Positions 7,781 to 33,790 of a stretch of DNA of 64,000 nucleotides are shown in pieces; position 1 is the stretch's first letter, and every line of letters starts with the position of its first letter. This DNA is from an uncultured archaeon (GTDB lineage: Archaea > Aenigmatarchaeota > Aenigmatarchaeia > CG10238-14): assembly GCA_964392445.1 (NCBI GenBank), contig CAYMPD010000001.1, positions 32,001 through 96,000 of the forward strand. Direction: 5' to 3'. The notes under the pieces were generated by a model. It saw nothing but the letters and a program-made list of their open reading frames with translations, had not been told where the DNA came from and did not search any database. The translations under genes were made by a program, and so were the position numbers.

Positions 7781-8689
7781 TTAAGTTTTTCTTTCCTTAA
7801 TCAACCCAGAAAAATCTCTATAATTATCTAACTCATCAATCTCACTATCAAAAATAACTGGTATACCGTCAATATTTTGATCCTTAGAATCTTTGGTAAT
7901 AAAAACAGAAATTGTATTTGTTAAAGAAGATATGTTCTTGAGAACTTCGGATTTTTTATCAATATTTTCTCTACACTCAGACAGTCCAGTCAAAAATACT
8001 TCTTTTTTTCTCCCAACTATCTCAAAAGGTGAAGATGACAAACAACTGGATTTTATTTTTAACTCGGAAAATTTGGTTTTTATCCTATCCTGAAATTTTG
8101 TTTTCGGGGCTATCTCATCATATTCTCTGGTCATAGTTATCTCATAATTTTTTGAAATTTTTATCCCAAAGAAATCTTCTAATTTCTCGACAGCTTCCTC
8201 TGTTGGATTTACTCTTTCATTTTCTATTTCATACAATGACTTTTTTGAAACATCTATCCTTTTACCTAATTCTTCTAAAGATAAATTCGTCCTCTCCCGA
8301 GATTTCCTTAGCAATTTTGCATCTATGTCAACCACATGCTTACCTTTTATCGCAAAAACAGAAGGCATCCAATCATTAGTAACAATATTCTCAAATGATC
8401 CAATTGTCATGGTTGGTACCCCAAACCTGGAATAGATAACATTATCAGAAAGTTTCCCTCTATTACACCTCACAGAAATAGTCAAAGTTTTACTTGAAAG
8501 AAAATCAGACATAATTTTCAGGTTGTTGGCATGTTCTCTGGAAAGTGAATCTATGTTTGTAAGTACTTTTATCAGTAAGGTATCATCTCTCCTTGTTAAA
8601 ACGTCAAAACATCCCCTAAAAACAACAGTACGAAACTCATTTAAATCTAAAATTTCTAAAACTTCATTCAATAAGTCAGCTTTAAACAT
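7781..8689 (-). CDS. Archaeal HTH transcriptional regulator (COG1395-like, XRE HTH)
   Basis: 'CFDVLTRR...LLIKVLTNIDSL', HTH 'LSLEELGKRIDVSKKSLYEIE'; usual neighbour of the thermosome gene. Confidence 0.85.
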   Translation of the reverse strand: MFKADLLNEVLEILDLNEFRTVVFRGCFDVLTRRDDTLLIKVLTNIDSLSREHANNLKIMSDFLSSKTLTISVRCNRGKLSDNVIYSRFGVPTMTIGSFENIVTNDWMPSVFAIKGKHVVDIDAKLLRKSRERTNLSLEELGKRIDVSKKSLYEIENERVNPTEEAVEKLEDFFGIKISKNYEITMTREYDEIAPKTKFQDRIKTKFSELKIKSSCLSSSPFEIVGRKKEVFLTGLSECRENIDKKSEVLKNISSLTNTISVFITKDSKDQNIDGIPVIFDSEIDELDNYRDFSGLIKERKT

Positions 8690-8730
8690 AAATTATATTT
8701 GAGTACGAAAAACTTAATAAGTTAATGGTG

Positions 8731-8840
8731 GGGCCCGTAGCTCAGCCTGGTTAGACCCTTTTTGGGGACTGAAGCGCTTGTCTTATAAGGCAACTGAGCG
8801 TAAAAGCAAGTGGTCCTGGGTTCAAATCCCAGCGGGCCCA
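8731..8840 (+). tRNA. tRNA-Ile(TAT) with two introns (about 8755-8772 in the D-arm and 8788-8804 at 37/38)
   Basis: Acceptor GGGCCCG/CGGGCCC+A; D-stem GCTC/GAGC after intron removal; anticodon stem CTTGT/GCAAG with loop CT-TAT-AA; T-arm CTGGG-TTCAAAT-CCCAG. Confidence 0.85.
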
Positions 8841-8847
8841 TTAATTT

Positions 8848-9027
8848 TTACTTTCTCGGCTTTTCAACACCATACACAATAAGAAGAATCCCTATTAGAA
8901 TTACAATAATCCTGCCTACTAAATGCGAACTTAACCATAAAATAATTCCATCCAAAACCAAAACTCTAGAACTAGTTATTAAAAAGAACATTATTACCCA
9001 CCAAGTAAGAGATAAAGAGAGATTCAA
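8848..9027 (-). CDS. Small two-TM membrane protein (59 aa; not in ORF track)
   Basis: TTG start; MNLSLSLTWWVIMFFLITSS...GRIIVILIGILLIVYGVEKPRK; fills the gap between the tRNA and the rhomboid gene. Confidence 0.55.
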   Translation of the reverse strand: MNLSLSLTWWVIMFFLITSSRVLVLDGIILWLSSHLVGRIIVILIGILLIVYGVEKPRK

Positions 9028-9103
9028 AATTTTACTTAACCGAAAATAATTTTAATATACTGGTCACTAAATACCATTAATTATTATTTTTGAAAAACGA
9101 TAA

Positions 9104-9748
9104 GTGATTGGTATGAGAAGAGTTGTTTTTGGTCATCGAAGGAGAAGAAGTTTTTGGGATACTATTACCGCTAAAATATTAGCTATAAATATAGTTGTTT
9201 TTCTTCTGACTAGTTTTAGTCAATCGACGTTTGATCTTCTCGCATTAACCCCTACTATCGCTGTTCAGGAAGGAATGTTCTGGCAATTCTTTACGTTTAT
9301 GTTTGTACATGCTAACTTTGCTCATATATTCTTTAACATGTTCTCGTTACTGATGTTTGGTCCGACTATTGAAGAAAGAATGGGTACTAAGAATTATTTG
9401 ATATTTTACCTACTCTGCGGGCTTGGGTCAGGTGTATTCCATATTTTAATCACCGGTTTAGGTATTATTCCTCTTGTTGGTGCTTCTGGTGCGATATTCG
9501 GTGTGGTCACTGCTTATGGTTTATTTTTCCCAAGACATGTTATATATGTTTATTTTATCCCTATGCCTGCAATTGTCGCGATTGGGTTGTTTGCGATGAT
9601 TGAGTTGTTCTCTGGAATATCGGGTGTTCAGTCAGGAGTAGCTAATTTCGGACATCTTGGTGGAATGATTGTTGGTTTTATTCTAGTGAAATTTTTTGGG
9701 TTTGGGAAAAAGAAGAACCATGTTTATTTTTGGGAAAGCGATTGGTAA
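9104..9748 (+). CDS. Rhomboid family intramembrane serine protease
   Basis: 'WQFFTFMFVHANFAHIFFNM', catalytic 'GASG', 'HLGG'. Confidence 0.95.
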   Translation: MIGMRRVVFGHRRRRSFWDTITAKILAINIVVFLLTSFSQSTFDLLALTPTIAVQEGMFWQFFTFMFVHANFAHIFFNMFSLLMFGPTIEERMGTKNYLIFYLLCGLGSGVFHILITGLGIIPLVGASGAIFGVVTAYGLFFPRHVIYVYFIPMPAIVAIGLFAMIELFSGISGVQSGVANFGHLGGMIVGFILVKFFGFGKKKNHVYFWESDW

Positions 9749-10993
9749 TTAATTTGGAGTGGTCAAAACTACATCAACTATATCTTCTTGTAAAGGTCGG
9801 GTAAGATTTCTTGTATTGGTTCCAAAATCAACTGATGCATTTATCTCCGCAACATAAAAAGACATATTTTCTCTAAGATAAGTACTAATTCTTCTTTGAA
9901 GTTCTTTATATTCTTCACTTGACCTATATTCTCCAAAAATCCTATCGAGATTTGCTAGGTCTCCCTCAAATTTTTCATCATATAAAATACCCAATAAATC
10001 AGTACCAAATCTCTCTACACGTGAATCTAATGTCGCCCTCATCTTATCTTTAGCCCCTTCAATCTCTGAATCCTTATAATCCGATACTCCTCTCACAACT
10101 TCATAAATTCCTCTTCTGACCTCTAAATCGTCACAAACAGGTATTATATCCACTCCTACTATTAAAGGACCTTGATCATTTTCTATATAGGAAAGCATTG
10201 CTCTTACAGAACTTAAGGATATGTCCTCTACTATTTGTGGAGAATCTATGCCGCCCACAGGAATTGCTCCAAGTGCTGTATTTTTAGCTTCCTCTTCATC
10301 ACTTCTACCAACTCTAGCCAGACACCCTAAATATTCAGGTTTTCTCCCCCTTTTCATAGAAACTAGACATCTTAAATCAAGTGGATGAGGTAAAAATTCT
10401 TCAAGAAAAAGTCCCCCCGGATTTATACTATTTCTATAGAATGCACTAGGGACTTCTCCTCTTGGTTTACCCCGCTGAGAACTACAAAAATCAATGAAGT
10501 CTTCTTTTCCGTTTACTTTAATTATAGATTTTCCTCTGCTCCCAGAAGTCGGTTTTACTGCTACCGGAAAACCTAACTCTTCCTGTATAGAATCTGCTAT
10601 TTCTTCTATATTTTCTTCATTTCCTCTAATTGTTCCACCAACAATTTTCAAAGGATGTTTTGTTAAGTGATAAGGAGCAGTTGGTATTTCTTGATCCTTA
10701 AATACTTCTTTCATGGCCGGTTTATATCTACAAAACCCTTCCACCGAATAAGAACTTAAAACTGTTATTCCAGACTCTTCCAACTCTTGAGCGAAATTAA
10801 CTCTTCCTCTCCTATGCACCAATCTATTCACGACTTTATCTAGATCTTCTAGAAACTCTTTCTCTATTCCCGTTCTATGAGAATAATGCATTATAGTAGG
10901 TATAACTCCCCTATTTAGAAAAGCTTGGAGTATTAAAATTTCATCTACATAAAGTTCTGTATCAAGATAATCAACGGCAAGTCCTATTGTCAT
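9749..10993 (-). CDS. LysX/RimK-like ATP-grasp amide ligase with a long helical insertion
   Basis: 'VNRLVHRR', 'VAVKPTSGSRGK', 'LEEFLPHPLDLRCLV', 'KNTALGA', 'GVDII', 'AEINASVDF'. Confidence 0.75.
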   Translation of the reverse strand: MTIGLAVDYLDTELYVDEILILQAFLNRGVIPTIMHYSHRTGIEKEFLEDLDKVVNRLVHRRGRVNFAQELEESGITVLSSYSVEGFCRYKPAMKEVFKDQEIPTAPYHLTKHPLKIVGGTIRGNEENIEEIADSIQEELGFPVAVKPTSGSRGKSIIKVNGKEDFIDFCSSQRGKPRGEVPSAFYRNSINPGGLFLEEFLPHPLDLRCLVSMKRGRKPEYLGCLARVGRSDEEEAKNTALGAIPVGGIDSPQIVEDISLSSVRAMLSYIENDQGPLIVGVDIIPVCDDLEVRRGIYEVVRGVSDYKDSEIEGAKDKMRATLDSRVERFGTDLLGILYDEKFEGDLANLDRIFGEYRSSEEYKELQRRISTYLRENMSFYVAEINASVDFGTNTRNLTRPLQEDIVDVVLTTPN

Positions 10994-11058
10994 ATCAAAA
11001 CAAATTAAAATATAACTTTTAAATATCTGACCCTATAAATTGTGTAAAGGTGTAATAA

Positions 11059-11145
11059 ATGAATGAACTAGACTTTTTTTGTGTTTTCCGAGTTTTATCT
11101 AGTTCGATCACTGTTTCTAAGAAGAAGTTAAAGAAGAGACGATAA
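11059..11145 (+). CDS. Putative 28-aa leader or small peptide MNELDFFCVFRVLSSSITVSKKKLKKRR
   Basis: ATG preceded by the SD-like AAGGTG; stop 16 nt before tRNA-like element 1. Confidence 0.35.
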   Translation: MNELDFFCVFRVLSSSITVSKKKLKKRR

Positions 11146-11161
11146 TCGGTCATTGTTTTTT

Positions 11162-11210
11162 GGACTGTGCGTCTCATGGGCTATCAGGTTCGAATCCTAA
11201 CAGTTCTTTC
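11162..11210 (+). ncRNA. tRNA-like mini-element 1 (acceptor stem plus T-arm only)
   Basis: GGACTG(11162-67)/CAGTTC(11201-06) stem; TCAGG-TTCGAAT-CCTAA T-arm; 16-nt connector. Confidence 0.55.
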
Positions 11211-11213
11211 TAG

Positions 11214-11807
11214 ATGGATGATAAAATGGCACCAAGAATAATACTAATAGATAATAATACTCAATACTTGAGTGAATTGACTGGATATTTAAATGATCTC
11301 GGGACAGAAGTAGATTTAACAAGCCCATTGTGTAATTTCCAGATCGATGAGTACGATGGTGCAATTGTTTCTGGAGGAAGAATGCCTCCAGGTAATCATA
11401 AACCTATTTATGACTGGTATTCTGAACTCTTTGAAGAAGCCGGGAAAAGTGGGATTCCTGTACTTGCAATATGTTTTGGTCACTTGATCTTTGGATTAAC
11501 ACAAGGAGGTAGTATTAAAAGGATGGATCTAGGAGAAGAAGGTATTATAGAGGTAAATTTTGAAGAAGGTTATCCTCTAGCACCTGACGGACACAGATTA
11601 AGAGTTTTCGTATCCCGTGATAGAATATTGCAAAGAGTACCTCCTTCTTCAAATGTATGGGGGGTTTCTTCTAAGTCTAGTGCTGAGGCGTTGAGTTATG
11701 GGTCTATATTTACTGTAGGTTTTCACCCAGAAGTACGCGAATCTAGGAATCAAGGTCAGATGATACTAGATGGATTTTATCAAATATGTGGAGGAAGTGA
11801 AAGATAA
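11214..11807 (+). CDS. Class I glutamine amidotransferase-fold protein (start possibly 11226)
   Basis: 'IILIDNN', 'GAIVSGG', nucleophile elbow 'LAICFGH', 'GFHPEV'. Confidence 0.85.
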   Translation: MDDKMAPRIILIDNNTQYLSELTGYLNDLGTEVDLTSPLCNFQIDEYDGAIVSGGRMPPGNHKPIYDWYSELFEEAGKSGIPVLAICFGHLIFGLTQGGSIKRMDLGEEGIIEVNFEEGYPLAPDGHRLRVFVSRDRILQRVPPSSNVWGVSSKSSAEALSYGSIFTVGFHPEVRESRNQGQMILDGFYQICGGSER

Positions 11808-12646
11808 TGTATGAGAGGCCCTTATTAGTAGTAAAAATAGGTGGGAGTTTAATTCCCCCATGTGGTGAGTTACAAGACACTGAACAACTCAGAGGTATCG
11901 CGAAAGATATAGCGGGGTTGTATCCAAGGAACGATTTCGTAATTTTACATGGTGGTGGAAATAGGGTTACTTATAGAATGAAAGAAATGGGTAAAGAACC
12001 TCAATTTATAACATCTAGAAATGGTATGAGAAGTAGATACACTGACAGAGGAACTATGGATATTTTCGCTGACGTGATGGGAGATATAAACCAAGAGTTA
12101 GTCGATTTACTAACTACCCAAGGTCTAAGTTCAAGGGGGTTTTATAATGGTAGTAGCCCATTAATGGGTAGAAGAAAAAAGGCCCTTAGAGATTACCGTG
12201 ATGGTAAGGTCCTTCTAGTTAGAGATGATTACAGTGGTAGATTATATGGTTTAGATAGAAATTGTTTGTTAGATTCTCTTGAAAGGGAAGAAATGCCGGT
12301 TATCTCGCCTGTGGCTGTTGGTGAAGAAGAAGAATTTTTAAATGTAGATGGGGATACTGCTGCTGCATATACAGCCTCTGAACTTGGAGCAAGAACATTA
12401 ATTCTTATTACTGATGTTACAGGCGTTTTAGATGGTGATAATGAGTTAGTAAGAAGAGTACCATATCAGGATTTAGATAGTTGGATTAGTAGAGTTGATG
12501 GTGGTATGAAAAGAAAATTAATGGCGAGCAAAGAGGCTATAGAAAGGGGCTTAGAGAAAGTTTTAATTTGTGGTGGACGGGAGGATCGTCCTTTATCAAG
12601 AGCTTTGAGATATGAAAATGGTACTGTAATAAAAGGTGATAATTAA
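11807..12646 (+). CDS. lysZ: [LysW]-aminoadipate/glutamate kinase-like (LysZ/ArgB)
   Basis: 'VVKIGGS', 'LHGGG', 'SRYTD', 'RKK...DGK...DDYSG', 'PVISPVA', 'LNVDGDTAAA', 'GGMKRKL'. Confidence 0.85.
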   Translation: MYERPLLVVKIGGSLIPPCGELQDTEQLRGIAKDIAGLYPRNDFVILHGGGNRVTYRMKEMGKEPQFITSRNGMRSRYTDRGTMDIFADVMGDINQELVDLLTTQGLSSRGFYNGSSPLMGRRKKALRDYRDGKVLLVRDDYSGRLYGLDRNCLLDSLEREEMPVISPVAVGEEEEFLNVDGDTAAAYTASELGARTLILITDVTGVLDGDNELVRRVPYQDLDSWISRVDGGMKRKLMASKEAIERGLEKVLICGGREDRPLSRALRYENGTVIKGDN

Positions 12647-12652
12647 TGTTAG

Positions 12653-13894
12653 GTGAACATCAAAAGATATGATAATTTGAGGGGTAGAGAAGTACCTATA
12701 TCAATAGTATTAAGAGAGTTCACTCAAGGTTATCCATTATATTTTGGTTATAGAGGGGATAAATCTTTCCAAGAACTTCTCTCTTTATTATTTGCAACAG
12801 GTGTCCATTCAATAGAGATAGACAATCCTTATCAGGGGGACTTTTCCGATGGCCATGTACCGATTAAAACAGGACATGTACAATTAGCAGGAAAATTGTA
12901 TGGTGACAGAGTATTATCACATCTTAGGTTAGGGCCAGGTATACCTGATATAAAATACTACTTAGAATATATGGAAGAGATTCAGAAAACTGGTGTTGGA
13001 TTATTCACAACACTTGACTACGAAAAAATAGGTTATGAATCTCAAGAAGATCAATTGAAAGATGTGGAGAACGGAATAGGAAGGTTAATAGAATCCGGAG
13101 TTCAAACAGTTAGATTTAGTGTTGAAAATGGTGTTTACTATTTCCAAAACGGTGAAAGAAATGAGATAGAAAATCTAATAAGAGTAGCAATTGAAGCCGG
13201 CGCCAATACTATAGGACTCCCTAAAACCAATGGAAAAAATAGTGTTGATATGTACAGATTTGGTCAAGAAGTAGGGACTTTGGTCCCAGACGATATTAGT
13301 ATTCGCTTACACTGTCATGGAACCCCCCCCTATCTTTTTGTTCTGAATGGATTGGCAGGGTTGTTAACTTCAGGCCATGAAAATGTAGTTGTAGAGACCA
13401 CACTTGAAAGATCTTCCCATCCTAATAGCGTTGAGATACCAGGTATAGTTGAAATGAATGATAGATTGAGAGAAGGAGGTGTAAAAACTGGGGTAGAACC
13501 TAATTTTCTTGTAAGAATCGTTAGTGATGCTTTAGATATGATTTATCGACCGTCTCATTTACCACCTTATGAATTGGCAATTGGAGGACACGCAGCGAAA
13601 AAAATGAATGGTTCTAAAGACTATGATGGTCAAATTCAAAGAAATAATCATAAGAGAATTTTTTCTCACACGACAGGAAAAAATATCTTAAGAGATTTAC
13701 TAGAACAGTATGGTATACAGGTACATCCTAAGAATATCCCAAAAGTAGCAACTGAAATCAGAAGGCTTATGTCAGGGGATTATCCAGATATTAATCCTAG
13801 GATATATTTAGATGAAGATGGGGTTCCTAGATTGGATAATATTCTAACGAAAATTTCAGAATTAAGGGGTATCCCAATCAATGGGGGTGATTAA
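12653..13894 (+). CDS. Divergent DRE-TIM metallolyase (homocitrate/isopropylmalate synthase-like)
   Basis: 'VLREFTQG' (cf. TLRDGEQ), 'SIEIDNP', 'TIGLPKTNG', HxH 'LHCHG', 'HTTGK'. Confidence 0.6.
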   Translation: MNIKRYDNLRGREVPISIVLREFTQGYPLYFGYRGDKSFQELLSLLFATGVHSIEIDNPYQGDFSDGHVPIKTGHVQLAGKLYGDRVLSHLRLGPGIPDIKYYLEYMEEIQKTGVGLFTTLDYEKIGYESQEDQLKDVENGIGRLIESGVQTVRFSVENGVYYFQNGERNEIENLIRVAIEAGANTIGLPKTNGKNSVDMYRFGQEVGTLVPDDISIRLHCHGTPPYLFVLNGLAGLLTSGHENVVVETTLERSSHPNSVEIPGIVEMNDRLREGGVKTGVEPNFLVRIVSDALDMIYRPSHLPPYELAIGGHAAKKMNGSKDYDGQIQRNNHKRIFSHTTGKNILRDLLEQYGIQVHPKNIPKVATEIRRLMSGDYPDINPRIYLDEDGVPRLDNILTKISELRGIPINGGD

Positions 13895-13918
13895 AATACC
13901 ATAAATTCAGTTGACTGT

Positions 13919-13970
13919 AGAATTGTGCATTATTTGTGGCCTATCAGGTTCAAATCCTGACAATTCTTTC
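13919..13970 (+). ncRNA. tRNA-like mini-element 2 (acceptor stem plus T-arm only)
   Basis: AGAATTG(13919-25)/CAATTCT(13961-67) 7-bp stem; perfect TCAGG-TTCAAAT-CCTGA T-arm; 18-nt connector; 27/30 identity with element 1 over the last 30 nt. Confidence 0.6.
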
Positions 13971-13981
13971 AAAAATTAGAG

Positions 13982-14278
13982 GTGGAGAAAATGGAAGATA
14001 TCTATGAAAATAATGGATTATCTATATCAGTGGTTGATTTAGATGGTTTTAGAAATTCATTAAGGACTTTAGGGAATAGAACAACGTTAGAAAGAGTAAT
14101 AATAGAAAGTTTTCTTATCTACGGATATCAACCACAAATTGAAATTACTGGGATCCGAGTCGGTGATAGATACTTTTGGGGAGAAGAAACCCCAAAAGCA
14201 GAACCTATCTATCACGGAGTAGTACAAGGGTGTAGTTTATATGGACAAGAAATTGTAGTGGAGGGGGGGTTGGTATGA
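13982..14278 (+). CDS. Hypothetical protein (start possibly ATG 13991)
   Basis: Open frame with SD-like GAGGTG; Lys-poor like its neighbours. Confidence 0.6.
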   Translation: MEKMEDIYENNGLSISVVDLDGFRNSLRTLGNRTTLERVIIESFLIYGYQPQIEITGIRVGDRYFWGEETPKAEPIYHGVVQGCSLYGQEIVVEGGLV

Positions 14279-14334
14279 AAATACTAGTAGGAATATGCTT
14301 AATTTACTCCAAAGAAAAGGTGATTATATCTTAG

Positions 14335-14655
14335 GTGTTGACCGGAAGGATTGTTAGTGGATTAGACTGTAGTGGATATTACAGGGGATTCTTAGTTTAT
14401 ACCTTAGGGACCAATTGCGAAGAAATATTACACCTTCATTGTATCCCAGAACAGGAAATTAAAGAGGGAATTGATGAAAAGAAAGTTATAGATCGATTGG
14501 GCTACGAAAAGGAAGTTACAGAATTCGAGGGTAGTTACACATTAACTCTCTCTGGTAAAAAAATTGGTGCCCTACATGTAGATACCCCGTCAAATTTAAC
14601 CAGCAAATCCGATGTTCAAACTTTATTAAGAAAAAGTGGATATCAGTTCAGCTAA
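14335..14655 (+). CDS. Hypothetical protein
   Basis: 106-aa ORF co-directional with its neighbours. Confidence 0.55.
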   Translation: MLTGRIVSGLDCSGYYRGFLVYTLGTNCEEILHLHCIPEQEIKEGIDEKKVIDRLGYEKEVTEFEGSYTLTLSGKKIGALHVDTPSNLTSKSDVQTLLRKSGYQFS

Positions 14656-14670
14656 ACCATAAAAACTTGG

Positions 14671-16368
14671 GTGACTAAAATGAGAAGTATGAAAGAAGAT
14701 GAGACTATGTTCTGGTCAGACAGAATTGCGAATTTATTGATAGAAAGAAAAAAATATAACTACATAGACAAAAACACTCAAAAACCAGAGAAATTTCAAG
14801 TAAAAAGTAGTACTTCTATATCAGGTGTTCCACACATAGGTAATGCTTCTGATGTGATAAGACATGATGCCGTGGTCAGATCTCTAAAAGAAATGGGAGA
14901 GAAAGTACATTTTATCTGGGTATCTGAGGATATGGATCCTTTAAGGAAAGTACCTGCCGGAATTCCTAAAGAATTTAGTAAATATTTGGGTATGCCTGTA
15001 TCAGATTTACCTTGCCCAGAGGGTTGTTGTGAGAGTTATGTCAAGCACTTCACTAGATTATTCATAGAAAGTCTTCATAAGCATTTTGGAACTGAACCGG
15101 AATTAATTTCAACCACAGATGCTTACAAAAATGGGAAATTTTATCCTTATGTTAAATTGTCTTTGGAAAAGATTGATATAATAAAAAAGATACTTAACAA
15201 ACATAGAACCAATCCTCTACCTAAAGTTTGGAGTCCCTTAAAACCAGTTTGTGATAATTGCGGGAAGATAATAACTACCAAGATAGATGATGTAAATAAA
15301 GATGTTGTTAGTTACAGATGTGAAGATTACTCCTTTAAAGAATTTGGTCAGAAAGCCTACACTAAAGTTGAGGGTTGTGAACATAAAGGCGGATGTGACA
15401 TTACTAAAGGTAATTATAAATTGTTATGGAAGATCGAATGGGCAGCTGAGTGGCCTTTGTGGAAGATTAATTTCGAAGGTGCGGGAAAAGAACACTATAT
15501 GCCAGGTGGTTCCTTCTGGAATGCTGGCGAAATTTGTGAAAAAGTGTTTGATTGGCCTGAACCTTATCCTGGAGAAAATGAAATCCAGCCTTATGAGTAC
15601 ATTTTAGTAGACGGAGAAAAAATGTCTGCATCTAAAGGTAATGTGGTCGCAACATGGGAATGGCCTGAATTTGCTCCGCCTGAAATACTTAGAATGCTCC
15701 TTTTAAAGAGACCAAATAAGACAAGAGGATTCTCCTATGAAAAAATACCCGAAATGGTTGATGAATTTGATGAATTAAAGGAAATCTATTATGGCCATAA
15801 AAAGATTGAAAATGAAAAGGAATTAAGAAATTTGAAAAAACTTTACGAAGTTTCTAGGATCGAAGAAAAATATCATTATACCCCTAGCGTTTCGTTCAGT
15901 TACTTGGCTTTAATAAGTCAGATGATTCCTGAATCTACTACAAGTAATTTTGATAGAGTAATTCAAGTTCTCAAAAAAACCGAACATATTACAGAAGATA
16001 ATGAAGAGATTAGAACTCATGTAAAGAAGAGACTGGAAATGGCTGGAGAGTGGATGAAAAGATATGGTCCCGAAGAGGATAGGATAAAATTATTGAAAAA
16101 GGTACCAAAAGAAATAGTTGGGAAATTGAGTGAAGAACAGAAATCGTCCTTGAAAGAACTTTCGGGATTTATCCAAAAAGACTTTACAAGAAAAGAAATG
16201 TGGGATGAAATAAAATCAACAGCGGAAAAGTACGGAATAAAACCCGGAAAAATATTCCAAGCAGCTTATCTAGTTCTAATTGGAAGAAAAAGAGGACCAA
16301 GAATGATACCTTTTATTCAACTATTGGATAGAGATTTCGTGATTAAGAGATTTAGTTTGGAAGATTAA
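14671..16368 (+). CDS. lysS: Class I lysyl-tRNA synthetase (start possibly 14707)
   Basis: 'SISGVPHIGN', 'EDMDPLRKVP', 'WKIEWAAEW', 'GAGKEH', 'KMSASKGN', 'GPRM'. Confidence 0.97.
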   Translation: MTKMRSMKEDETMFWSDRIANLLIERKKYNYIDKNTQKPEKFQVKSSTSISGVPHIGNASDVIRHDAVVRSLKEMGEKVHFIWVSEDMDPLRKVPAGIPKEFSKYLGMPVSDLPCPEGCCESYVKHFTRLFIESLHKHFGTEPELISTTDAYKNGKFYPYVKLSLEKIDIIKKILNKHRTNPLPKVWSPLKPVCDNCGKIITTKIDDVNKDVVSYRCEDYSFKEFGQKAYTKVEGCEHKGGCDITKGNYKLLWKIEWAAEWPLWKINFEGAGKEHYMPGGSFWNAGEICEKVFDWPEPYPGENEIQPYEYILVDGEKMSASKGNVVATWEWPEFAPPEILRMLLLKRPNKTRGFSYEKIPEMVDEFDELKEIYYGHKKIENEKELRNLKKLYEVSRIEEKYHYTPSVSFSYLALISQMIPESTTSNFDRVIQVLKKTEHITEDNEEIRTHVKKRLEMAGEWMKRYGPEEDRIKLLKKVPKEIVGKLSEEQKSSLKELSGFIQKDFTRKEMWDEIKSTAEKYGIKPGKIFQAAYLVLIGRKRGPRMIPFIQLLDRDFVIKRFSLED

Positions 16369-16405
16369 ATAAAACGTTAAGTAAATTAATTCATAATCTA
16401 TTGTC

Positions 16406-17497
16406 ATGAGTGTCTTTGAAAATCTTCAACAATCCAGAATCTACAAAAACGAGGAAGCATTATCAACAGAATTCTTGCCAAATTTTCTTCCGCATAGAGA
16501 AACACAAATACAAGAGATAGCAAGGAATTTAAACCCGCTCACAAAAGGTAGAAAACCACAAAACACATTCATCTTCGGACCACCAGGAATAGGTAAGACT
16601 TGTGTGACCAGATTCGTACTTAGAGAATTACAAGATTTTGCAAGCGATAATGTAGATACTGTTTTTATCAACACTTGGGATTATAATACTGCTCCCGCGT
16701 TACTGACCAAGATTGTGGTTGAGTTAGGTTACCCTTTACCAAGGCGAGGACTATCAAAAGATGAAATAATGGAAAAATTAATTGAAGTTTTAAAAAGAAA
16801 GAACAAAAGCTTGGTTGTTGGCCTGGATGAAATTGATCAATTAGTGAAAAAAGATGATTCTGCACTTTATGATTTACTAAGGATTAATCAGTATGTTAAG
16901 ACACCTGTAGGTCTTGTAATGATTTCAAACTATGGTAATATTTTTGCTAAAGTTGAACCAAGGATTAAGAGTAGTTTAGACACCCAACAAATAGAATTTA
17001 AAGGTTATTCGATTCAAGAAATGAAGGATATTATCAAGGAAAGATGTAAAGAAGCTTTTAGAACAGGGATTGTTCAAGAAGGGGTAACACTACTATGTGC
17101 TAATCATGCTGTTAACCGGGGAGGAGATGTTAGAGTAGGACTGGAATGTCTTAGAAAGGCTGCAAGAGCTTGTGAACAAGAAGACGGGGAAAAGATTCTC
17201 GTAAAACACGTGAAACAAATACTTCCTAGCGTTAAAACAGTTAAATTAAGATTGATGAGAGATAGGCTAGAAGGAGTTGACAAAAATATTGTTGAATTAC
17301 TAAAAACCAAGAAGAAGATAATCTTTTCCAAATTTATGAAGGATTACAATAAGAATTATGAAGCATTGTCAGATACTTCTCTTAAACAACATCTGGATTA
17401 CCTTGAAGGAGCAGGATTAGTAAGAACAGAGGAAACGAGAAGTGGTGGAAGAGGAAGAAAGTGTTACATTAGTTTGGTTAAGAGGAAGAAGTTCTAG
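16406..17497 (+). CDS. cdc6: Cdc6/Orc1 replication initiator AAA+ ATPase
   Basis: 'LPHRETQI', Walker A GPPGIGKT, Walker B 'GLDEID', 'GDVRVGL', C-terminal winged helix. Confidence 0.95.
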   Translation: MSVFENLQQSRIYKNEEALSTEFLPNFLPHRETQIQEIARNLNPLTKGRKPQNTFIFGPPGIGKTCVTRFVLRELQDFASDNVDTVFINTWDYNTAPALLTKIVVELGYPLPRRGLSKDEIMEKLIEVLKRKNKSLVVGLDEIDQLVKKDDSALYDLLRINQYVKTPVGLVMISNYGNIFAKVEPRIKSSLDTQQIEFKGYSIQEMKDIIKERCKEAFRTGIVQEGVTLLCANHAVNRGGDVRVGLECLRKAARACEQEDGEKILVKHVKQILPSVKTVKLRLMRDRLEGVDKNIVELLKTKKKIIFSKFMKDYNKNYEALSDTSLKQHLDYLEGAGLVRTEETRSGGRGRKCYISLVKRKKF

Positions 17498-32854: not shown

Positions 32855-33790
32855 TTAATCTTTCTTCAACTTAATCTTCATCATATCTCTAGCAACAACA
32901 GCATCAGGAAGAACTTCTCTTGCTTGGTCTTCCAGTTCTTTAGGATCAGTATATCTTCGGCTAATATGAGTGAGAATAAGTTTCTTAACACCAGCTTTCT
33001 TTGCCAATCTTGCGGCTTCTTTAACATCAGCATGAGCCTTAGAACCAACATCTTCCTCGAGGAAAGTCCCGTCATGTATCAGAAGATCCGCGTTCTTAGA
33101 AATTTTAATAATATTATCACAGGGAGCAGTGTCCCCAGAATAAACAACCTTCAAACCTTCCTTCACATAACCAACATCCTCTATCCTAATCTCCTTATCT
33201 TCCCAAACCATCTTATCTTCCTTTTTCAATTTTTTAAGCCATGGTCCTCTATTTATCCCCATCTCCTCAAGCTTATCCTCATAAATATTCCATTTATCTT
33301 TCTCCTTAAAACAAAAACCAACAGTAGGAACAGAGTGAAGAACAGGTATTGAACTTATCTCGTAGTTCTCATCCTCGTCTATTTTAGTAATCTCACTACC
33401 TTCAAACGGGACATTCACTGCTTTAACTGGGAATCTTAATCCAAAGTAACCCATGTCAAGGATGTTTGATACAAATCTTTCAGCCTCGGGAGCAAATATG
33501 GTCAAAGGTTTGTCTCTTTTTTCCAGGTTCATAGTTTGTATAAGTGGTATTAATCCCGCAAAATGATCAGCATGCCAATGACTGATAAAAATCTTGTCAA
33601 TCGCCATAAAACTTACATCCGACTTCATCAGTTGTTTTTGGGTTCCCTCCCCACAGTCGAAAAGAAATACCTGTCTTTCATTTGTAAAATGTTCTAGAAC
33701 TATTGCTGGGTGATTCCTATGAAGACTAGGTATGCCTGACACTGTACCAAGGAATGTTATTGTTATCATAAGTAATTCTTTTAACCTCAA
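32855..33790 (-). CDS. rnz: Ribonuclease Z
   Basis: 'FLGTVSGIP', 'DCGEGTQ', 'SHWHADH', 'YSGDT', 'HDGTF', 'LTHISRRY'. Confidence 0.96.
   Translation of the reverse strand: MRLKELLMITITFLGTVSGIPSLHRNHPAIVLEHFTNERQVFLFDCGEGTQKQLMKSDVSFMAIDKIFISHWHADHFAGLIPLIQTMNLEKRDKPLTIFAPEAERFVSNILDMGYFGLRFPVKAVNVPFEGSEITKIDEDENYEISSIPVLHSVPTVGFCFKEKDKWNIYEDKLEEMGINRGPWLKKLKKEDKMVWEDKEIRIEDVGYVKEGLKVVYSGDTAPCDNIIKISKNADLLIHDGTFLEEDVGSKAHADVKEAARLAKKAGVKKLILTHISRRYTDPKELEDQAREVLPDAVVARDMMKIKLKKD

Follow-up and report, generated by a model that had tools for sequence, protein, structure and literature searches.

Two tRNA-like elements, E1 and E2, in a 64,000-nucleotide (nt) stretch of archaeal DNA (contig CAYMPD010000001.1, positions 32,001 to 96,000; the whole stretch that was analysed is called the window) are real, selected RNA modules of a rare leader that is specific to operons encoding lysyl-tRNA synthetase (LysRS). 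The host is a metagenome-assembled genome of Aenigmarchaeota (DPANN) of 1.2 Mb in 54 contigs, 94.9% complete and with a G+C content of 34.5%. On the evidence set out below, we favour the reading that E1 and E2 form a small, lineage-restricted family of cis-acting tRNA-like modules for processing by RNase P and RNase Z, and we hold this reading to be about evenly poised between right and wrong.

Both elements consist of an acceptor-like helix of 6–7 bp, the dinucleotide U-G where a tRNA has U8 and G9, a pyrimidine-rich linker, a T-arm and a discriminator U; the D arm and the anticodon arm are absent. E1 (11161–11210, + strand) has its acceptor 5' strand at 11161–11167, its T-stem at 11184–11188 paired with 11196–11200, its T-loop TTCGAAT at 11189–11195 and its acceptor 3' strand at 11201–11207, followed by the discriminator T at 11208. 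The corresponding parts of E2 (13919–13970, + strand) are the acceptor 5' strand at 13919–13925, the T-stem at 13944–13948 with 13956–13960, the T-loop at 13949–13955, the acceptor 3' strand at 13961–13967 and the discriminator T at 13968. The linker of 16–18 nt (16 nt in E1), or U-G plus a pyrimidine-rich stretch of 14–16 nt, ends in UGG-(N)-GCUA, and the T-loop is of the canonical form TTC(G/A)AAT, flanked by GG and CC. An earlier note, made from the letters of the window, had described these positions, the build of T-arm plus acceptor stem without D or anticodon arm, a 27/30 match over the last 30 nt and paired changes between the copies; re-reading of the sequence agreed on each of these, including the changes from E1 to E2 of C-G to U-A at pair 5-68 and of G.U to A-U at pair 3-70. 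Only E2 forms a perfect 12-bp stack of standard pairs, since E1 carries U.U at pair 1-72 and C.A at pair 50-64. The distance of 3–11 nt that the note gave to the next gene start was right for E1, since the ATG of the class-I glutamine amidotransferase-like (GATase) gene at 11214 begins 3 nt after its end, but not for E2: the likelier ATG, at 13991 (with GAGGTGG ahead of it), lies 20 nt beyond the end of E2, and 11 nt is the distance to a GTG. The stop codon of the preceding HMGL-like gene lies 24 nt 5' of E2, and TTAAAATA at 13891–13898 could be a TATA box belonging to E2 itself. Just 5' of E2, we also saw by eye that AAATTCAG (13903–13910) can pair with the E2 acceptor 5' strand AGAATTG; such a hairpin would compete against the tRNA-like fold of E2.

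The covariance-model search of archaeal genomes that the earlier note had suggested was carried out with a first model built from two copies and a second built from eight, together with pattern scans, across 185,579 species genomes and JGI metagenomes. Beyond the window's genome, the element was found in G002 and G004 (same genus), in G008 (a second genus) and on three more distinct metagenome contigs (L061, L062 and L064), giving eight distinct copies with E1 and E2, and the helix was kept in both genera and in the metagenomes. No other element was found among the 118 genomes of the order or the 185,579 species genomes; the carrier genomes fall in two genera only, and each of them has the element at a single locus. 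In the closest relative, G001, contigs break just after the rhomboid gene and within LysRS, so the locus is not covered. Weaker matches of the models were rejected as class II tRNAs (G012, G016, G021), as T-arms of tRNAs or, in G086, as an antisense coding segment without a T-loop.

The T-loop core GGTTC(G/A)AATCC was invariant in 8/8 copies, and the acceptor helix was retained through exchanges among G-C, A-U and G.U and among C-G, U-A and U.G. Standard pairs occupied 85% of the cells over the eight copies, compared to at most 51% when the 3' partners were slid, and three pairs were altered on both sides, namely 3-70 (A-U, G-C, G.U), 5-68 (U-A, C-G, U.G) and 51-63 (A-U, G-C). The covariation score of these copies was reached by 3 of 500 column shuffles. 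Two pairs, U1.U72 and C50.A64 (G.A in G008), were open in all leader-type copies, and only E2 closes both. Compensation was seen in the single-copy element between genera that share only 56% identity in their rhomboid proteins. These results support selection on the elements at the RNA level, and the argument for it that the earlier note had drawn from two copies is borne out by compensatory changes over eight (four genomes, three metagenome contigs). All copies end 5–25 nt ahead of a start codon without a T-run behind them, which fits read-through into the genes.

Within the genome, the elements are specific to one locus and do not serve as general operon punctuation. For a degenerate 23-nt core of the elements, shuffles gave an expectation of 0.01 matches in the window; two were observed (E1 and E2), they were the only matches across the whole 1.2-Mb assembly, and a scan of the genome for orphan T-arms returned no further example with a good stem. 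ARAGORN, including its intron mode, called neither element as a tRNA, and the matches of Rfam searches at permissive thresholds (queries of 3.4 kb, 186 nt and 81 nt) were at chance level and included no tRNA, tmRNA, T-box or riboswitch family. A canonical, intron-containing, split or permuted tRNA was rejected on these grounds and because the 5' strand of each element pairs with the element's own 3' strand; the earlier note was correct that neither is a full tRNA. A reduced tRNA-like fold within a longer RNA is also known from mascRNA (the 3' end of MALAT1) and tmRNA, where tRNA enzymes recognise it, and the tRNA-like domain of tmRNA likewise has a linker in place of the D-stem. In contrast, those RNAs come from eukaryotes or bacteria, mascRNA has retained a cloverleaf and the acceptor of tmRNA is formed by the two ends of the RNA; neither of the two was matched in Rfam.

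We also considered whether the repeats are marks in the DNA and not signals in the RNA, that is, attL/attR-like repeats left by insertion of the genes between them, with the element as a hot spot of cassette exchange. As direct repeats, E1 and E2 bracket exactly the three-gene block of GATase, kinase and HMGL-like genes (11214–13894, + strand); the block is missing in G004 and L064 and differently arranged in G002, and the gene content just 3' of the element differs in nearly every genome. This resembles the duplicated tRNA 3' ends at att sites, in which direct repeats with the look of a tRNA 3' end surround a variable gene block. A parent tRNA, however, was not found: compared to the 48 predicted tRNAs of the 94.9% complete genome, the 3' end of the element agreed at no more than 18/25 positions, which corresponds to the generic T-loop, and a genome-wide scan with the 3'-end pattern and two mismatches allowed returned E1 and E2 only. 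There is also no integrase or mobile-element gene beside the repeats among the genes at 7781–17497. Moreover, the whole unit including the covarying 5' strand is duplicated, an internal crossover would have scrambled the strands that are matched within each copy, and homologous loci retain the structure, with compensation, as a single copy across genera. The att remnant that the earlier note had held out as an alternative is disfavoured on this evidence, and a recombination scar of any kind appears very improbable.

The elements are tied to LysRS. In 5/5 loci long enough to judge, LysRS lies downstream on the same strand; the window, G002, L064 and G004 have a class I enzyme and G008 has a class II enzyme (L075 1737–3275; 650 bits with the NCBIfam model lysine--tRNA ligase, which exceeds the cut-off). 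The genes that directly follow the element vary: GATase, kinase and HMGL-like genes after E1 of the window, a LysW-like carrier with an EDWGE tail as the first gene in L061, an HMGL-like first gene in L064, a 104-aa open reading frame (ORF) and then an HMGL-like gene in G002, and a 143-aa ORF in G004 and G008, where only this small ORF stands between element and LysRS. In other genera of the family the synthetase gene comes straight after the rhomboid gene, separated from it by 40–70 nt that hold no leader. The leader is a lineage-specific addition that accompanies LysRS of either class and LysW-pathway-like genes, and this gene content argues for a lysine-related function in cis.

A tRNA-like fold close to the start codon of a LysRS operon could be the operator of a protein: LysRS, or a tRNA-binding protein of the operon such as the product of a small ORF, would bind the mimic and, as at the E. 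coli thrS operator, repress translation from the adjacent start without cleavage. The distance of 5–25 nt from a start codon or Shine-Dalgarno site suits such binding, as does the occurrence of the element exclusively with LysRS operons, and the conserved mismatches and linker (UG...UGG.GCUA) suggest specific recognition. The likeness extends to the E. coli thrS operator and to T-box leaders, which are also tRNA-related cis elements ahead of aminoacyl-tRNA synthetase genes. However, the thrS operator mimics the anticodon arm, which E1 and E2 lack and which is the main identity element of tRNA-Lys, and T-boxes bind tRNA and do not resemble it. The acceptor stems of the elements are AU-rich, whereas those of the genome's real tRNAs, including the tRNA-Lys genes, are GC-rich, and the acceptor sequence varies freely. 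One leader type also serves both classes of LysRS, which approach the acceptor stem from opposite sides, and this argues against recognition by one particular synthetase. We give the protein-bound mimic only a small chance of being right.

An RNA acting in trans was considered as well: RNase P and RNase Z would release a minihelix of ~48 nt, which would receive CCA and might, among other roles, provide the ligase, kinase and amidotransferase with an aminoacylated carrier. Acceptor/T-arm top halves suffice as substrates for RNase P, for CCA-adding enzymes and for several synthetases, and the neighbouring LysX-like and LysZ-like proteins are enzymes of carrier-dependent types. Against this, L061 encodes a protein carrier, LysW, directly after the element; G004 and G008 have no enzyme genes between the element and LysRS; and the acceptor sequence is not conserved. 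The aminoacyl carrier had been a speculative suggestion of the earlier note; we found nothing in its favour, the AU-rich acceptor stems being unlike those of tRNA-Lys, and we judge a released small RNA hardly probable at all.

We chose the reading of E1 and E2 as processing modules, one that the earlier note had also put forward, because their features match those of known t-elements: the T-arm is the hallmark of tRNA, the helix is under selection at the RNA level, and the fold lies shortly before a start codon without a T-run. In plant mitochondria, t-elements found via the motif GGTTCRANYCC guide RNase P and RNase Z to the cuts by which mRNA ends arise (PMC1920247), and t-elements of Haloferax are processed by both enzymes (PMC4326828). 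The t-elements that lie 5' of Haloferax volcanii 5S rRNA and those of plant mitochondrial mRNAs (PMC4326828, PMC1920247) have in common with E1 and E2 a non-canonical fold, the GGTTCRANYCC T-arm, an acceptor-like stem and a place within longer transcripts beside mRNA or rRNA ends. The host likewise has RNase Z, the candidate 3' processing enzyme, encoded at 32855–33790 (- strand; NCBIfam NF000801, 310 bits versus a cut-off of 252), as the earlier note had correctly stated, and it probably has RNase P, a candidate RNA of which was found on another contig (C17:25027-25235, ~209 nt, 68 bits, E 3e-19). E1 and E2 differ from t-elements in that they are tied to one type of operon, stand behind a leader that looks translated, carry two conserved mismatches and lack both the D and the anticodon arm; cleavage is reported for t-elements, and here we infer it.

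In the processing model, the ancestral state is a module that closes a leader of ~165 nt; the head of the present operon has kept leader and E1, and E2 is a second, bare copy placed between the HMGL-like gene and the part comprising ORF95, ORF106 and LysRS. Transcription would run through the element, and the fold would be read by RNase P as the top half of a tRNA, with cuts at 11160/11161 and 13918/13919, while RNase Z would cut after the discriminators at 11208 and 13968. These cuts would free the leader (E1) or the three upstream cistrons (E2) and define the 5' end of the downstream message, with any regulatory effect arising from there; the GATase message would be left with a nearly leaderless 5' end of 5 nt.

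Several points weigh against this model. The RNase P RNA match of 68 bits is under the Rfam gathering score of 84; by way of observation, this short candidate may be a reduced RNase P RNA. From a plain processing substrate one would not expect the conservation of U1.U72 and C50.A64 in all leader-type copies; these mismatches hint at an alternative pairing or a specific binder. One locus per genome excludes general punctuation, and a dedicated regulatory role may outweigh cleavage. Finally, the covariation statistics are thin, with only about four independent lineages behind them.

E1 closes a conserved leader of ~165 nt, of which ~115 nt 5' of the fold are kept in the seven copies other than E2. 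The earlier note had not noticed this leader, the tie of the family to LysRS of either class or the confinement of the elements to one locus. In order, the leader comprises a TTTAAATA-type box, GGTGT, an upstream ORF, a U-rich stretch that varies, a purine-rich block that is strongly conserved, another U-rich tract and the tRNA-like fold; the first gene follows behind a Shine-Dalgarno site, in most cases GAGGTG. In the window a TATA-like box, TTTTAAATAT (11017–11026, + strand), heads the leader as a putative promoter, and all relatives have a TTTAAATA box at the corresponding place. GGTG at 11049–11052 (+ strand) is a Shine-Dalgarno-like site or, in relatives, possibly the GUG start of the first upstream ORF; GGTGT is kept in 6/7 leaders. 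The ATG behind it opens a 28-codon leader ORF (11059–11145, + strand) that may be translated and ends K-K-K-L-K-K-R-R-TAA. A T6 tract at 11156–11161 (+ strand), between the stop of this ORF and E1, may act as an archaeal oligo-T termination or pause site; a U-rich tract is present in the relatives too.

The relatives carry two coding-like parts in this region. One is a conserved upstream ORF of 9–12 codons, M-(L-S/N-V)-I-G-E-L-E-K-L-C, with TTG, GTG or ATG as its start and GGG, GGC or GGT as its Gly codon. The other is the frame of the purine-rich block, which is open for 20–30 codons in 7/7 leaders, compared to 1–4 stops in each of the other two frames, and which in the relatives ends K-(x)-K-L-K-K-K-(R/C)-stop, 15–22 nt 5' of the fold. 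Aligned codons of this frame are used synonymously (TTA, CTG or TTG for Leu; AAG or AAA for Lys), the indels of the leader are multiples of three, and the excess of changes at third codon positions is slight (195 versus 159 and 162). A start codon with a ribosome-binding site precedes the Lys-rich frame in the window and G008; G002 has no ATG, GTG or TTG in it, and the arrangement is variable elsewhere. Together, these features give the E1 leader a translated look. We also observed that in relatives the 9–12-codon ORF overlaps the Lys-rich frame at a conserved AAAAG in a +1 relation, a possible recoding site, and that a 1-nt difference in the window joins both frames into the single ORF 11059–11145.

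The coding-like character of the leader raises the possibility of ribosome-mediated lysine sensing, in which the run of Lys codons would report the supply of Lys-tRNA. A ribosome at the stop codon, 15–22 nt before the fold, would cover the acceptor 5' strand, one stalled on the Lys codons would leave the tRNA-like fold free, and the fold, its cleavage or the U-tract would then set expression of LysRS and the LysW-pathway-like genes. This accounts for the complete ORF of the window with its GGTG, ATG and KKKLKKRR ending, for the homologous frame that is open in all seven leaders at a fixed distance between stop and fold, and for the indels in threes and the synonymous Leu and Lys codons. An ORF stop lies 15–24 nt 5' of E1-type copies and of E2, and in the E1-type copies the Lys run abuts it. 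The genes downstream are related to lysine (LysRS, a LysZ-like kinase, a LysW-like gene), and service to both LysRS classes fits codon sensing better than binding of a single enzyme.

Similar arrangements are the leader-peptide attenuators of E. coli pheM-pheST and the Thermus thermophilus lys cluster. They share with the present leader a short ORF (here rich in Lys codons) 5' of synthetase or pathway genes, with its stop within ribosome reach of a structure. In contrast, the present host is an archaeon, the leader has no evident terminator/antiterminator pair, the structure downstream is a tRNA-like fold, and in several relatives no regular start opens the frame. For ribosomes to enter it, a +1 shift from the conserved upstream ORF where the two overlap at AAAAG, or a different route, would be needed in most relatives; the third-position excess is also slight. 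RNAalifold and an exhaustive stack search over the seven leaders found no convincing consensus helix 5' of the fold; among the long helices of the leader, the acceptor helix alone is paired with compensation in all seven sequences, and single-sequence folds of the leader differ among relatives. A 4-bp pairing between the K-L-K codons and the 3' junction of T-stem and acceptor covaries in 7/7 leaders, but it is short and one of four comparable candidates, and the leader otherwise yields only short purine/pyrimidine helices. We know of no demonstration of leader-peptide attenuation in archaea. A lysine-sensing layer was rated low because of the irregular start in relatives, the lack of alternative hairpins and the leaderless E2; we consider it rather unlikely. 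The combined form, an archaeal ribosome-sensing attenuator in which translation of the leader would govern both formation of the fold and its cutting by RNase P or RNase Z, with +1 entry in most relatives at the conserved AAAAG, a Lys codon of the 9–12-codon ORF, seems to us quite unlikely.

Other identities for the leader were tried and set aside. A C/D-box small RNA (UGAUAGG with CUGA) was rejected, with a D-box-like CUGA in just 3/7 leaders, and so was a T-box, whose UGGN (as UGGU) occurs in only 4/7 leaders and for which Rfam gave no match. An anticodon-loop-like UUCUUAU was seen in 2/7 leaders.

For Bacteria, control in cis of synthetase and amino acid genes has been charted in detail (T-boxes, leader peptides, tRNA-mimic operators); for Archaea it is almost unknown, and here a reduced DPANN lineage retains a dedicated leader ahead of class I or class II LysRS. 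The system bears on whether archaea control an operon through tRNA-processing enzymes and leader translation, and a natural acceptor/T-arm minihelix under selection informs what the top half of tRNA does alone. Should the element be a processing site only, it would be a modest extension of t-elements to DPANN archaea. Were the attenuator true, the supply of lysyl-tRNA would be coupled to expression of LysRS and a LysW-type pathway, and leader-peptide control would exist in Archaea with a tRNA-processing site instead of a terminator hairpin. With two short transcripts, one RNase Z gene and a run of Lys codons, the system is simple to probe.

Along the window, the locus runs from rhomboid through the ATP-grasp gene (- strand), the leader with E1, GATase, kinase, HMGL-like gene, E2, two small ORFs and LysRS to Cdc6, and over 7781–17497 it also includes a gene for a helix-turn-helix (HTH) protein ahead of rhomboid. 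In Logan DNA contigs, assembled independently from the source sample (one microbial mat), both element junctions are bridged. The rhomboid gene (9104–9748) is followed by a LysX/RimK-like ATP-grasp gene (9749–10993, - strand), which is divergently transcribed and has weak NCBIfam and Pfam matches. The class-I GATase (11214–11807, + strand) was assigned by Pfam and NCBIfam, and for the LysZ-like amino-acid kinase (11807–12646, + strand) the top NCBIfam model is [LysW]-aminoadipate kinase. The divergent HMGL/DRE-TIM protein (12653–13894, + strand) was recognised by Pfam and NCBIfam, with only a faint match to homocitrate/isopropylmalate synthase models. Beyond E2, the Shine-Dalgarno site GAGGTGG (from 13979, + strand) precedes ORF95 (13991–14278, + strand), which is followed by ORF106 (14335–14655, + strand) and the class I LysRS (14671–16368, + strand). 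Between the HTH gene and rhomboid, the intron mode of ARAGORN called a 110-nt tRNA at 8731–8840 (Asp-GTC, 15-nt intron); the call disappears without that mode.

Additional observations were made on the lysine-related genes. The carrier directly 3' of the leader in L061 (1789–1959) is a 56-aa protein of LysW/ArgW type with an EDWGE C-terminus; no LysW was seen in the cluster of the window. The slot after rhomboid holds a class I LysRS in some genera and a class II enzyme in G008 (L075 1737–3275 versus window 14671–16368), genomes of genus g4 (among loci L037–L042) appear to have class II LysRS too, as judged from N-termini, and the class I LysRS of G004 is only 36% identical to that of the window. 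These sequences suggest that LysRS has been replaced repeatedly at one locus. G002 has its kinase homologue as a fragment of 186 aa, encoded on the opposite strand immediately 5' of the leader (L005 513–1073, - strand; L066 2081–2641, - strand), and the GATase gene lies between rhomboid and this fragment; the cluster there is rearranged and perhaps decaying. The HMGL/DRE-TIM-like protein forms only three clusters in 5.8 billion proteins, the other two being 61% and 53% identical to that of the window, and all three (window 12653–13894, L064 1419–2627 and L005 1910–3052) adjoin the same leader and LysRS.

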